A stretch of DNA of 19,354 bases from a virus (Duplodnaviria > Heunggongvirae > Uroviricota > Caudoviricetes). The notes under the pieces were generated by a model that was not told the DNA's origin, did no database searches, and worked only from the letters and a program-made list of their open reading frames with translations. The translations under genes and the position numbers were made by a program. The stretch is taken from the IMG/VR virus record IMGVR_UViG_2695420523_000020. One strand, 5' to 3'. Of the stretch, positions 7,590-19,354 are shown piece by piece; position 1 is the stretch's first letter, and every line of letters begins with the position of its first letter.

Positions 7590-7755
7590 GATGGCAGCCT
7601 CTAGTGATAAGTTGGTAAACTCACCACCGGAGGTGCAAATCTCATGGGTGGTGAGACGTACAGGGTTTGCACTACCGGTCACTAGAGAATCCGGCCCGCC
7701 CGAAAACGGCCCCATACGCCCCACCATAATCTGAATGTGGCTGCGCTTTACGCAT

Positions 7756-7778
7756 AAAAAAACCGCTTTGGCGCGGTT
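7756..7778 (-). terminator. Hairpin plus T7 on the minus strand
   Basis: Minus strand reads aaccgc-gccaaa-gcggtt followed by TTTTTTT (plus-strand A-run 7756-7762). It lies inside the putative N-terminal extension of the Rha ORF. Confidence 0.4.
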
Positions 7779-8061
7779 ATGCGCTCTAGTGATCATCGGG
7801 GTGCAAATCCCGGCACCCGTTTTATGAGGTGCAGGTGCACTATAATTCCACCCGTTCTGGTTTTCAATAGCTACATTCAACATTTTCTCTCACCTTTCAT
7901 CACTGAAGTGAACTTTGTTGATGCGGTGCCTGGTGCCTCCAGGTGACGTTAACCAGTTAACAATTAACGCCGGATATTTCACCCATAACTCTGCTACGAA
8001 GGACAATAGCTTTTTAACTGTTCCGCGTGCGCTTAGCCGCATTCACCGCATCACAAAATTC

Positions 8062-15735: not shown

Positions 15736-15864
15736 ATTCATTCCGTATGGGAATTCCCATATCGGGCAAAAACGGTTTGCTGTAAAGCGAGAGTTAAGTA
15801 GAATTGCTGCGGGTGCTTGAGGCTGTCTGCCTCGGGCATGCCGCCGTAAGGCAGACAGAGAAAA

Positions 15865-15935
15865 GCCCCAGTTAACATTACGCGTCCGGCAAGACGCTTA
15901 ACATTAATCTGAGGCCATATCTATGCGACACATAG
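15865..15935 (-). ncRNA. Sok-like antisense RNA (approximate position)
   Basis: Inferred from hok/sok architecture: antisense to the hok leader around the mok-like start. Possible minus-strand promoter TTGACC-17-CTAATC inside the mok/hok leader. Exact ends not determinable from sequence alone. Confidence 0.3.
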
Positions 15936-15982
15936 AGATTAGCCTCTTACGGACCGAAAGGTCAAGGAGAAGCAGGCTATGA
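15923..15982 (+). CDS. mok-like leader ORF (19 codons) overlapping the hok start
   Basis: ATG at 15923; its stop TGA overlaps the hok ATG (ATGA). Much shorter than plasmid R1 mok. Confidence 0.35.
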   Translation: MRHIEISLLRTERSRRSRL

Positions 15983-16589: not shown

Positions 16590-17189
16590 ATGGCGCATAT
16601 ACAACTGGTCAAACAAACCTCTTCCGGATTACTTCTCCCGGCGACGCCGGAGAGTTGTGATTTTCTGCATCAAATCAAAATAGGCGAGTGGATACACGCT
16701 GATTTTAAGCGCGTTCGTAACTACGCATTCCATAAGCGTTTTTTCAAACTTCTGCAACTCGGATTCGATTACTGGACTCCGGTCGGTGGGGCGATCACTC
16801 CTCGCGAACGAAAACTGGTGTCCGGTTTCGTTGATTATCTGTGTGAATCAGTAGGCCGGGAACATACGCCAGCTCTGAGCGAAGCCGCAGAGCAATATCT
16901 GAATACAGTTGCGACACGCAGAACCCGAGATACAGCATTGCTAAAGTCGTTTGAGGCTTTCCGCGAGTGGGTAACCATTCAGGCCGGATTTTACACCGAG
17001 CATATTTATCCGGACGGTAGCCGTGGGCGCAGGGCGAAATCCATCTCGTTTGCGAATATGGACGAAACCGAGTTTCAGCAGGTTTATAAATCTGTGCTGA
17101 ATGTACTGTGGAACTGGATCCTGTTCCGTAAATTTTCCTCTCCGGAACAAGTCGAAAATGTGGCCGCGCAGCTACTGGAGTTTGCGTAA
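16590..17189 (+). CDS. DUF1367-family prophage protein (YbcN-like), 199 aa
   Basis: ATG at 16590 with SD GGAGA (the track start at 16578 is TTG). Lies immediately upstream of the DUF1364-like gene, the same order as ybcN-ninE-ybcO in DLP12 as recalled. Confidence 0.55.
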   Translation: MAHIQLVKQTSSGLLLPATPESCDFLHQIKIGEWIHADFKRVRNYAFHKRFFKLLQLGFDYWTPVGGAITPRERKLVSGFVDYLCESVGREHTPALSEAAEQYLNTVATRRTRDTALLKSFEAFREWVTIQAGFYTEHIYPDGSRGRRAKSISFANMDETEFQQVYKSVLNVLWNWILFRKFSSPEQVENVAAQLLEFA

Positions 17190-17479
17190 TGGTGGATTTA
17201 CGTAAAGCGGCGCGGGGGCAGATGTGCACCGTCAGAATTCCTGGCTACTGCAATCACGATCCGGAAACGTCTGTGCTGGCGCATTACCGACTGGCGGGAA
17301 CGTGCGGAACAGCGATAAAGCCACACGATATGCAGGCAGCGATTGCCTGTAACTCATGCCACGATTTAATCGACGGGAGAGTAAAAACCAGCGATTACAC
17401 CAAAGAAGAATTGCGCCTGATGCATGCAGAAGGTGTTTTTCGCACACAAGAGATCTGGAGAAAGGACGGTTATTTATGA
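17189..17479 (+). CDS. DUF1364-family protein (YbcO-like), 96 aa, Cys/His-rich
   Basis: ATG overlaps the upstream stop (TAATG). Translation MVDLRKAARGQMCTVRIPGYCNHDPETSVLAHYR...CNSCHDLIDGR has a Cys/His metal-binding pattern. Confidence 0.55.
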   Translation: MVDLRKAARGQMCTVRIPGYCNHDPETSVLAHYRLAGTCGTAIKPHDMQAAIACNSCHDLIDGRVKTSDYTKEELRLMHAEGVFRTQEIWRKDGYL

Positions 17480-18030
17480 TTTACCCAACGAACACAGGAA
17501 AAAGCGGAGAGCACCTTCGTCTCACCACGCTGGAAAGTGTCTGGATTCAGGGGAAACTACGTATGTGGGGGCGCTGGTCGTATATTGGCGGCGGTAAGAC
17601 GGGAAATATGTTCAACCAGTTGCTGACCTCTAAAAAGCTGACAAAAACGGCAATTAACGAGGCGCTCCGGAGGATGAAAAAAGCAGGTCTGGACAAACCT
17701 AAACTTGAGGCTTTTTTGCGGGATATGATCAACGGCAAGCAAAAAAGCTGGCTGGTGCATTGTACCGATTCAGAGGCGTTAATAATCGACAGGGTTATTG
17801 GTGAAGTACTGGCAGGTTATCCCGGGCTGCTCAATGTTCTGAGTCAGCGTTATGTGGGGCGGGGGATGACTAAGCGCAAAATGGCTGAACTGCTGAATGA
17901 TGCACATCCGGAATGGAGTTTAAGAACCTGTGAAAGACGCATTGAGCATTGGCTAAAGGTGGCAGAATTTATTTTGTACAAACCAATGGTTATGGCTTTT
18001 GGTATAGAGAAAAAAGTTATTGCTTTTTGA
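17476..18030 (+). CDS. Putative late-gene antiterminator Q (184 aa)
   Basis: ATG at 17476 overlaps the upstream stop (ATGA), SD AAGGA. Last gene before a terminator and a tRNA cluster, the Q position in lambdoid and Stx phages. The W-G-x-W segment (LRMWGRWSYIGGG) resembles QuuD-type Q proteins as recalled. The track start at 17356 lies inside the upstream gene. Confidence 0.55.
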   Translation: MIYPTNTGKSGEHLRLTTLESVWIQGKLRMWGRWSYIGGGKTGNMFNQLLTSKKLTKTAINEALRRMKKAGLDKPKLEAFLRDMINGKQKSWLVHCTDSEALIIDRVIGEVLAGYPGLLNVLSQRYVGRGMTKRKMAELLNDAHPEWSLRTCERRIEHWLKVAEFILYKPMVMAFGIEKKVIAF

Positions 18031-18106
18031 CGTAAAAACTGCTTCAATTCCGGTAAGCTTCGCAAAGCTGTATCGCGAGGCGAACCAAACGCATGAACTT
18101 TACCAG

Positions 18107-18130
18107 AACCCGCCATTGAGCGGGTTTTTT
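18107..18130 (+). terminator. tR'-like rho-independent terminator downstream of Q
   Basis: aacccgc-cattga-gcgggtt hairpin followed by a T6 run (18125-18130). Confidence 0.6.
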
Positions 18131-18169
18131 ATTGCGGAATTAATTACGGACCGTTATTATTCTGCTCCC

Positions 18170-18245
18170 GGCCCTTTAGCTCAGTGGTGAGAGCGAGCGA
18201 CTCATAATCGCCAGGTCGCTGGTTCAAATCCAGCAAGGGCCACCA
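18170..18245 (+). tRNA. tRNA with CAU anticodon (Ile2 ileX/ileZ-like, or Met)
   Basis: 7-bp acceptor stem ggccctt/aagggcc, D-arm TAGCTCAGTGG, anticodon loop CTCATAA, T-loop GGTTCAAATCC, encoded CCA end. Close to E. coli ileX as recalled. Confidence 0.85.
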
Positions 18246-18345
18246 TCACAAACCGCCATTAGCTTATCAGGAAGAGCAGACGACACCATAACAGGGTTGT
18301 TGGTGCGGGGGCGGGTCCCCGATGGCGGTCCATTATCGGTATTCT

Positions 18346-18422
18346 GCGTTGTTAGCTCAGCCGGACAGAGCAATTGCCTTCTAAGCAATCGGTCAGTGGT
18401 TCGACTCCACTACAACGCGCCA
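18346..18422 (+). tRNA. tRNA-Arg (anticodon UCU, reads AGA)
   Basis: Acceptor stem gcgttgt/acaacgc, anticodon stem attgc/gcaat with loop CTTCTAA (UCU), T-arm agtggTTCGACTccact, encoded CCA. Confidence 0.85.
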
Positions 18423-18435
18423 CACTTATTTTCCA

Positions 18436-18459
18436 GGCTCGCTTCGGCGGGCCTTTTTT
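18436..18459 (+). terminator. Rho-independent terminator after the tRNA cluster
   Basis: ggctcgc-ttcg-gcgggcc hairpin (one G-U pair) followed by TTTTTT. Confidence 0.6.
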
Positions 18460-18591
18460 GTATCTGCGCCACGCCCGGCGCATATCAACCACAGAGCCTT
18501 TCGGGGGTGAGCTTACGGAGTGGTCAGTGTGACTTTCTCTGTGGGCAGATCGCTCCCGGGCGTTGGCTCACCCACCCAAAGGAACGTCACG

Positions 18592-19023
18592 ATGTTTGGA
18601 ATCTTCAAAAAGAAAACCCGCAGAGCGGCAGCGGAAATTAAAAAGTTTGAGAAACGCGATCTGGCACAGGCGGTGATTAACGCTGCATACCTGGTGGCCT
18701 ATGCAGATGGTGAATGCGAGGCATCCGAGAAAGCGAAGATCGAACAGGTCTTACGTAATCAGCCTGCGTTGTCTGCGTTTACCTCGGAAATTAATGCGAT
18801 TAGCGCAACTATTATCGGTCAGCTGGATACCAATTTTAAAATTGGTCGTCGTGCCGCGTTACGCGAGATTGAGGATGTGAAACACGATACGCGTGAAGCG
18901 GAAGATGTGCTGGATGTGGCGGTGGCCATTGCGGAGGCAGACGGCGAAATTGAGCCGGAAGAGCGCAAGGTGCTGGAAGAGATTGCCGGTGTTCTGGGTC
19001 TTCGTCTGGAGAATCACCTGTGA
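18592..19023 (+). CDS. TerB-like (tellurite-resistance TerB family) protein, 143 aa; cargo gene
   Basis: ATG at 18592 with SD AAAGGA (the track ORF starts further upstream at 18520). Acidic helical protein with DGE motifs (AYADGECEASEKAKI; AEADGEIEPEERKVLEEIAGVLGL) reminiscent of TerB-N domains; assignment from memory. Confidence 0.5.
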   Translation: MFGIFKKKTRRAAAEIKKFEKRDLAQAVINAAYLVAYADGECEASEKAKIEQVLRNQPALSAFTSEINAISATIIGQLDTNFKIGRRAALREIEDVKHDTREAEDVLDVAVAIAEADGEIEPEERKVLEEIAGVLGLRLENHL

Positions 19024-19187
19024 CGGTAAAACTGCGCCTGGCTGTGGCTGCACTCCTGCTGTTTCTGGTGGTGATGGTGGATTTCACCAGCAGAATCATG
19101 TCGGTGCTGGCGGATGGGGTGCTGGTCTGCGGCATTGTGGTATTGCTGTGGCCGGTGATAAAAAGAAACAGCCTGCATAATGCTTGA
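19020..19187 (+). CDS. Small hydrophobic membrane protein (55 aa)
   Basis: GTG start overlapping the TerB-like stop (GTGA). Translation VTVKLRLAVAALLLFLVVMVDFTSRIMSVLADGVLVCGIVVLLWPVIKRNSLHNA has two hydrophobic segments. Confidence 0.4.
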   Translation: MTVKLRLAVAALLLFLVVMVDFTSRIMSVLADGVLVCGIVVLLWPVIKRNSLHNA

Positions 19188-19324
19188 TTTTTTTGTTTGC
19201 TGTTTATTAAAAACACTTCTGCATGGTGAATCCCCCTGTGCGGAGGGGCGATCAGCAACCAGGTATATGGGATAATCGCGGATTCAGGTGCTGATACTGA
19301 ATTCACCGGGAGGCACCCGGCACC

Positions 19325-19354
19325 ATGCAAGAAAAAGAATGTGCATGCAAACAT
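19325..19354 (+). CDS. 5' end of an unidentified gene, truncated by the window edge
   Basis: SD GGGAGG 8 nt upstream of ATG 19325 (MQEKECACKH...). Only 10 codons are visible. Confidence 0.3.
   Translation, partial: MQEKECACKH

Follow-up and report, generated by a model that had tools for sequence, protein, structure and literature searches.

A cargo slot with tRNA genes and tciAB at the late-operon entry of a mosaic lambda-like prophage, and a structured leader that may gate tciA

The window analysed here is the whole 19,354-nucleotide (nt) stretch of a tailed-phage record (IMG/VR IMGVR_UViG_2695420523_000020), and the region under study occupies its right end, from a gene for a Q-type antiterminator to the last nucleotide. 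In the favoured reading, to which a probability of roughly 0.75 is given, this region is the late-operon entry of a mosaic lambda-like prophage that carries a common cargo, tRNA genes and the gene pair tciAB. The cargo would be induced with the late operon, and translation of tciA would be gated by a structured leader directly upstream of it. The features on which this reading is built are the following, with coordinates as window positions.

17476-18030, plus strand: Q antiterminator gene, 184 amino acids (aa), putative distant Q21-family member
18020-18106, plus strand: conserved non-coding block, expected to hold the late promoter PR' and the Q-loading and pause elements
18107-18133, plus strand: tR'-like intrinsic terminator, stem AACCCGC/GCGGGTT, loop CATTGA, followed by a T run
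18132-18160, plus strand: candidate tRNA-cluster promoter, TTGCGG, 17-nt spacer, TATTAT, ending 9 nt before ileZ
18170-18245, plus strand: ileZ, tRNA-Ile2 type, anticodon CAU (ARAGORN; Rfam 72.5 bits)
18253-18332, plus strand: pseudo-tRNA, a decayed argN (tRNA-Arg UCG), acceptor and D arms intact, anticodon arm and T loop destroyed
18346-18422, plus strand: argO, tRNA-Arg(UCU) (ARAGORN; Rfam 67.3 bits)
18435-18460, plus strand: second intrinsic terminator, 8-bp stem then TTTTTT (terminator scanner)
18463-18591, plus strand: structured tciA leader of about 130 nt, running from the second terminator to the ATG of tciA
18592-19023, plus strand: tciA, 143 aa, TerB family (Pfam TerB; PHROG 632; alignment with structure 2JXU)
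19020-19187, plus strand: tciB, 55 aa, DUF3927, two hydrophobic segments, its GTG start overlapping the tciA stop (GTGA)
19192-19354, plus strand: small RNA (sRNA) STnc100 (Rfam RF02076), cut by the window end; a full copy would end at 19384

The slot occupied by tciAB was compared with that of Shiga toxin 2 (Stx2) phages of the 933W / Sakai Sp5 type. These phages match the upstream flank from position 18130, through the tRNA genes, the second terminator and the first leader hairpin, and they match the downstream flank from just after tciB through STnc100, with stx2AB lying between the two. As both flanks are common to the Stx2 phages, the sequence comparison indicates a single slot that takes either tciAB or stx2AB as exchangeable cargo, which bears out the original prediction of a TerB-like gene in the position of stx. 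The likeness extends to an identical ileZ, a near-identical argO, the post-argO terminator, the ribosome-binding-site (RBS) edge CCAAAGGAAC, which is common to the regions upstream of stx2A and tciA, and an STnc100-type element, which is found after stx2B as well. The Stx2 phages differ in that they carry stx2AB where the window has tciAB, in that argN is dead in the window, in having a different Q gene and promoter/terminator module, and in keeping only the edges of the leader before stx2A, whereas the window has the full 130-nt leader. For an Stx2a phage (L002 1793-1890, compared with window 18423-18600), only the first leader hairpin (H0) and the RBS edge were kept upstream of stx2A and the central ~87 nt were missing, as if the cargo had been swapped inside the leader.

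Positions 17400-19354 were 100% identical to many complete Escherichia coli genomes, including O157:H7 Sakai and EDL933, and at least 80% of this stretch was present in 512 of the 5426 complete E. coli genomes of the collection over which all genome counts were taken. The Sakai counterpart is prophage Sp10, whose genes are already annotated (ECs_1958, phage antiterminator; ileZ4; argO4; ECs_1959, 'TciA/TerB-like protein'). Equating the whole window with Sp10 was rejected, since the correspondence is limited to the last ~2.8 kb and the left 16 kb of the window is unlike Sakai. Across the collection, the best match to the whole window had 78% coverage and 97% identity, and more than 78% of the window was found in one place in no complete E. 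coli genome of the collection. From the partial match to Sp10 and the lack of a whole-window match, it was concluded that the window is a Rac/Sp10-like prophage of mosaic make-up, in which the entry to the late region is of Sp10 type. This arrangement was known before: besides being annotated in Sakai, it has been published as a PR' 'moron' insertion site with convergent sRNAs for which Sp10 is listed (Tree et al. 2014, PMC4104026). The PR' moron site of the Sakai prophages in that paper has the same arrangement as the window, with AgvB1 (EcOnc01a) falling 31 nt past the window end; the paper concerns sRNAs 3' of the cargo, and neither the leader of tciA nor the pseudo-tRNA is discussed in the parts consulted. 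The supplements of Tree et al. hold no entry at the coordinates of this locus.

The entry to the late operon was predicted to consist of a Q gene followed by a tR'-like terminator, and both were found. The Q gene starts with an ATG that overlaps the stop of the YbcO-like gene preceding it (17189-17479). The Q open reading frame (ORF) matched Pfam DUF1133 with 351 bits, Phage_antitermQ (PF06530) with 33.7 bits (cut-off 26) and PHROG 753, 'anti-termination protein Q-like'; residues 13-181, nearly the full length, aligned with the solved phage-21 Q structures 6JNX/6P18 (E=3.6e-4). By these matches the product would be a distant, weakly related member of the Q21 family. The block between the Q stop codon and the terminator was almost unchanged between two phages that share only ~80% identity at the 3' end of Q, which fits a unit of promoter, Q-loading site and terminator. 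A weak candidate for PR' lies within it, with TTGCTT (18020-18025), a 17-nt spacer and the extended -10 sequence TGcTTCAAT (18040-18048). The first terminator appeared in the RNA fold and is kept in related phages; it was missed by a simple terminator scanner because part of its T run is drawn into the stem. It is also a module boundary, where homology to this Q type stops and homology to the tRNA region of the Stx phages starts, at 18130 (BLAST pieces, query 729/731). A promoter-proximal terminator right after Q is shared with the lambda 6S RNA and with StxS of Stx phages, and a short constitutive RNA would likewise be expected in the lysogen. StxS differs in being 258 nt long and processed to 74 nt (PMC7547250), whereas the RNA predicted here is ~80 nt and unrelated in sequence.

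The two predicted tRNA genes, with anticodons CAU and UCU, were called by both ARAGORN and Rfam. The sequence of ileZ was identical to that of the Stx2a-phage ileZ (76/76) and shared 68/76 positions with K-12 ileX, annotated as tRNA-Ile(CAU). By these identities the CAU tRNA is of the Ile2 type, predicted to read AUA, rather than an elongator or initiator tRNA-Met. In tRNA-Ile2 the CAU anticodon reads AUA after TilS has modified C34 to lysidine, and the tRNA is charged with isoleucine. The 100-bp spacer between the two genes (18246-18345) had been suspected to be the remnant of a third tRNA. No tRNA was called in it, even at Rfam E<=1; its whole length could be aligned with the interval that holds argN in an Stx2a phage (77/104 columns identical), with the acceptor and D arms conserved, and the suspicion was thus upheld. 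Among 60 IMG/VR prophage loci, tciA was preceded by an intact ileZ-argN-argO cluster in 21, by two tRNA genes with a gap in 23, by no tRNA gene in 13 and by another form in 3.

In phage Evi (L004 2109-2185) and in another locus (L052 1165-1240), the argN position carried a tRNA-Lys(UUU) called by ARAGORN; its argN acceptor arms suggest an anticodon switch. The tRNA cluster of the window is closed, as had been predicted, by a second terminator (18435-18460), which other phages keep before stx2A and before tciA. The candidate promoter sequence TTGCGG-17-TATTAT of the window recurs in an Stx2a phage and in phage Evi, and the primary start site mapped in Sp5 falls between tR' and the tRNA genes (Sy et al. 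2020, PMC7547250). Together these suggest that the tRNAs have their own promoter, so that they are probably made in lysogens too and need not be late-only. The possibility that the tRNAs serve the codon usage of tciA in particular was rejected, as tciA is nearly free of the codons concerned (AUA for 0 of 13 Ile, AGA for 1 of 10 Arg). It was also observed that tRNA genes adjoin tciAB in at least four unrelated phage backbones (L003, L006/L115, L010, L011 and the window), and that the tRNAs present differ from one backbone to the next: Ile2/Arg/Arg; Asn/Thr/Gly; in P1, Asn/Thr upstream and Ile2 downstream; and in jumbo phages, Trp/Cys.

The start of tciA was corrected to 18592, the GTG at 18520 falling within the leader. 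The TerB-like assignment, whose failure in a profile search would have refuted the original prediction, survived such a search: TciA scored 60.2 bits with Pfam TerB (PF05099; cut-off 24.4, E=2.9e-16, profile positions 2-109/118). Residues 14-137 also aligned with residues 20-144 of the solved Klebsiella TerB, 2JXU (E=4.4e-8). The acidic motifs D39-G40...E46...E51 and D117-G118...E123-E124 were invariant in six diverse phage copies and form a putative metal site. TciA thus resembles the TerB of the plasmid or chromosomal ter (tellurite resistance) operon in having the same domain at full length and the same paired acidic DG...E motifs; TerB of the operon is accompanied by TerZACDEF, whereas TciA is alone with a small membrane partner. 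TciB matched Pfam DUF3927 (PF13064) with 62.3 bits (cut-off 25, E=4e-17) and PHROG 1470, and this match, the two hydrophobic segments and the GTGA overlap agree with the predicted coupling to a small membrane protein. The PADLOC defence-system profiles gave nothing meaningful for TciA or TciB, and NCBIfam gave sub-threshold similarity of DjlA type only.

The names are taken from tciA-tciB-tciC of phage P1, where a TerB homologue is likewise followed by a DUF3927-type small protein and is flanked by tRNA genes, including a tRNA-Ile2(CAU). The P1 locus differs in its proteins (42-51% identity), in belonging to the C1-repressed ban operon, in having the third gene tciC and in lacking the leader. 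The region upstream of P1 tciA (L006 ~2400-2500) was observed to hold CACCGGGAAGCACCCGGCACC, which resembles the 3' part of STnc100.

The gene pair is common. At a coverage of at least 80%, tciAB was found in 802 of the 5426 complete E. coli genomes, and the median number of matching places per genome was 4 among the genomes with any tciAB match. An IMG/VR search seeded with the proteins gave near-identical E. coli prophage copies only, and the diversity described here was drawn from a one-genome-per-species collection. The ratio of nonsynonymous to synonymous substitution rates (dN/dS) of tciA was ~0.04 against copies with 32-66 synonymous differences, and by this measure tciA is under strong purifying selection. 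This bears directly on whether the region is decaying prophage debris, with an unselected slot and tciAB as a functionless hitch-hiker. The pseudo-tRNA argN would fit such decay, as would the mosaic nature of the window, which is whole in no complete genome of the collection, and many O157 prophages are defective. Besides the low dN/dS, the intact tciA and tciB ORFs, the ileZ identical to the Stx-phage copy, the leader pairing maintained by compensatory changes (see below) and the wide occurrence of the two-tRNA form (23 of the 60 loci) all speak against decay. This explanation is considered very improbable, and the selection signature already largely refutes it.

TciA homologues, mostly followed by a small membrane protein, were also found in N4-like phages, which are strictly virulent, and in the jumbo phages of Erwinia and Salmonella, and the pair is present in P1. 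The presence of tciAB in strictly virulent phages suggests that it serves lytic growth and not lysogenic conversion. In the conversion alternative, tciAB would be a cassette expressed in the uninduced lysogen, driven either by a promoter of its own or by transcription running through from that of the tRNAs, and it would confer resistance to tellurite, colicins or phages like the plasmid ter operon. Classical morons are indeed expressed from the repressed prophage; the tRNA promoter, indicated by its conservation and by the Sp5 start site (PMC7547250), lies 430 nt upstream; tciAB is enriched in multi-prophage pathogenic strains, with the median of four places noted above; and in P1, tciABC is in the C1-controlled ban operon and not among the late genes. 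On the opposite side, an intrinsic terminator separates the tRNAs from tciA, and a consensus sigma-70 scan gave zero plus-strand promoter-like sites in 17400-19354, including the stretch from the second terminator to tciA. The RBS would be hidden by the stable fold of the leader, and the pair is kept by N4-like and jumbo phages that have no lysogen to protect. Moreover, a TerB homologue is one of the seven ter genes. A conversion cassette is therefore regarded as improbable.

The tciA leader is the one part of the region that looks new. The following elements, all on the plus strand, were identified in it.

18466-18470 with 18477-18481: hairpin H0
18489-18496 with 18537-18544: helix H1
18497-18501: anti-Shine-Dalgarno (anti-SD) sequence CCUUU
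18578-18582: Shine-Dalgarno (SD) sequence AAAGG
18505-18512 with 18565-18573: helix H2
18517-18525 with 18548-18556: helix H3

The leader fold had a z-score of -3.8 relative to shuffled controls. Conservation of the leader DNA extended to the upstream regions of tciA genes encoding proteins of only ~43% identity, and to that of tciA in Machinavirus jumbo phages. With 14 diverse leaders, RNAalifold predicted H0 and H1 with compensatory changes. In a MAFFT alignment of 14 leaders, H0, H1, H4 and H5 were paired in 93% of the cells with 9 covarying pairs, and neither this percentage nor the numbers of double changes nor the covariation score was attained in any of 500 shuffles; the crossing helix set (anti-SD:SD, H2 and H3) was paired in 89% of the cells. 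A model-based alignment of 42 distinct leaders (A10), which was fitted to H0/H1 and is thus biased toward those helices, had 94.5% of the cells paired over all helices and 16 covarying pairs, compared with at most 52% in slid controls. The alignment of the most diverged leaders (A11, MAFFT) was too poor for pair counts, and their helices were checked by hand and by folding.

The minimum-energy folds of most members were a long hairpin in which CCUUU pairs with the AAAGG of the RBS. Five diverged members that had not been used in building the model all folded into an SD-sequestering hairpin (5/5), with a probability of the SD being unpaired of 0.02-0.16. A full pseudoknot with all helices formed at once was rejected on geometry, as the 5' strand of H1 abuts the base of the ~25-bp hairpin but would have to pair at the tip. 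On this model, H1 and the closed hairpin base would be mutually exclusive. The length of the G run in the leader (18503-18507) varied among prophage copies, from GGGGGTG and GGGGGGG up to 12 G in Evi and L156, and this may be due to slippage. The sequence GGGGTGAGC may resemble the enterobacterial ERIC repeats.

A covariance model of the leader (R1) found it before 78 of 80 IMG/VR tciA copies, always ending at the ATG. The leader was present before tciA in lambdoid, Klebsiella and jumbo Erwinia/Salmonella phages, and with the covariance model it was absent before tciA of P1, N4-like phages, Vibrio phages and Pseudomonas phage Zuri; Pseudomonas phage AF gave a borderline sub-threshold match of 14.7 bits. 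Diverged copies were found directly before other late-operon genes: an antirepressor gene of Sp10 between the endolysin and Rz genes, a second antirepressor type, an HNH endonuclease gene and unknown ORFs. These copies lie at L001 11487-11623 (Sakai Sp10, outside the window), L140 13783-13922, L007 4980-5096 and 1087-1225, L165 3699-3815 and L181 2982-3110. When the leader was compared with Rfam 15 (4227 families), terminator-type and noise matches below threshold were the only ones obtained. An identity with a Pas sRNA was rejected, as, according to their published description, PasA/PasD2 flank the esterase gene in E2348/69 and pasA/pasC/pasD1 are usually beside the holin/lysozyme operon. An enterobacterial-type leader and the start of tciA were also seen on a 700-bp contig of the actinobacterial Kocuria sabuli assembly (L114), which is probably contamination.

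The main rival explanation of the leader is a role at the DNA level, either as a recombination 'linker' for cargo swapping or as a small palindromic mobile repeat. The copies before unrelated genes (tciA, two antirepressor types, unknown ORFs) would fit this, and so would the two leader edges retained by stx2A, which are what recombination inside the leader would be expected to leave. The leader is also a long imperfect palindrome, and it is targeted by an IS110-family element: in PPompW-type prophages (LC567818 and others, H145-H155), ISEc20 was inserted 47 nt into the leader (~18507), in the poly-G run of strand H2a. A DNA homology patch, however, would not need the compensatory double substitutions that keep at least four helices paired, and the leader is always in one orientation, ends exactly at the start codon and has the RBS inside. 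The DNA-level explanation fits the covariation less well and is considered unlikely, and the two roles are compatible with each other.

At even odds, the leader is put forward as an undescribed family of phage cis-regulatory RNA, bistable or pseudoknotted, which would close the RBS of late-operon cargo genes until a signal arrives and would thus be a portable gate for moron expression. It resembles known RBS-hiding switches, such as RNA thermometers, the expression platforms of riboswitches and the refolding of hok mRNA, in the anti-SD:SD pairing predicted at the hairpin base and in a putative alternative helix that would exclude it. It differs from them in matching 0 of the 4227 Rfam families and in preceding several unrelated phage cargo genes. 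The signal may be the passage of Q-modified polymerase, a factor from the phage or the host, a small molecule or an ion.

The late-operon reading can be laid out as a series of steps, of which the transcriptional ones are taken from lambdoid biology and the translational one from structure and covariation. In the lysogen, PR' would fire constitutively and transcription would stop at tR', giving a short RNA, while the tRNAs would be made from their own promoter and end at the second terminator. After induction, Q-modified RNA polymerase would read past both terminators, and tciAB would be transcribed with the lysis and morphogenesis genes; this induction of tciAB is proposed from its position, by analogy. 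Translation of tciA would then be gated by the leader. In the off state, the long hairpin would pair CCUUU at its base with the AAAGG of the RBS. In the on state, the competing H1 would pair its upstream strand with the hairpin tip and, as H1 is sterically incompatible with the closed base, its formation would open the RBS. In the last and least certain step, TciA and TciB may act as a membrane-associated pair that aids the envelope or energy state of the infected cell during lytic growth, a role suggested by the strong purifying selection and by the presence of the pair in strictly virulent N4-like and jumbo phages.

Several observations weigh against this account. The consensus sigma-70 scan gave no strong PR' site in 17400-19354, so that PR' is placed by inference, and no pause element could be located with confidence. 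For the leader, apart from the bias of alignment A10, the H2 and anti-SD pairings showed scarcely any covariation, if any, since their two strands hardly vary. H1 costs 6-20 kcal/mol relative to the minimum-energy fold, and prefix folding, a stand-in for co-transcriptional folding, showed a transient H1 in three of six members; such a costly and only sometimes transient helix implies that the switch would need a helper. The literature on tciA, tciB and ECs1959 yielded no functional or expression data for this locus, and no experiment in it links any phage TciA or TciB to a phenotype (tellurite, colicin or phage inhibition). In P1, tciABC is dispensable in the laboratory (PMC10695390).

Downstream of tciB, STnc100 scored 107 bits in Rfam for the partial copy in the window and 145.8 bits for the full Sakai copy (threshold 47). 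In Sakai it is followed directly by the anti-sRNA AgvB on the minus strand (96.5 bits in Rfam), and beyond the window AgvB is followed by an esterase-sized ORF and then the lysis genes. A minus-strand ORF of 172 aa (18836-19354) runs antisense to tciA, tciB and STnc100. It is annotated in Sakai as hypothetical protein ECs_1960, is absent from the feature lists of the other matching genomes and is probably not a gene. Elsewhere in the window, Rfam matches were obtained in four regions (463-607, 2169-2347, 7644-7832 and 15811-15981) to SraC/RyeA and SdsR/RyeB, to RalA (the RalR antitoxin), to the C4 antisense RNA adjoining an IsrK-like RNA, and to the sok antitoxin RNA (hok/sok).

The arrangement described here confirms the textbook architecture of Stx phages and is in itself known, common and ordinary. 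The exchangeability of tciAB and stx2AB is shown down to the shared leader edge and RBS. Since tciAB is present in about one in seven complete E. coli genomes and in many virulent phages, it represents a common phage function without an assigned role. The leader is the part that looks new. If it does gate translation, this would explain the silencing or the timing of cargo genes behind the late promoter, would provide a handle for predicting the expression of prophage cargo in pathogenic E. coli, and would add a phage-borne class of RNA that is lacking from the current RNA family libraries.

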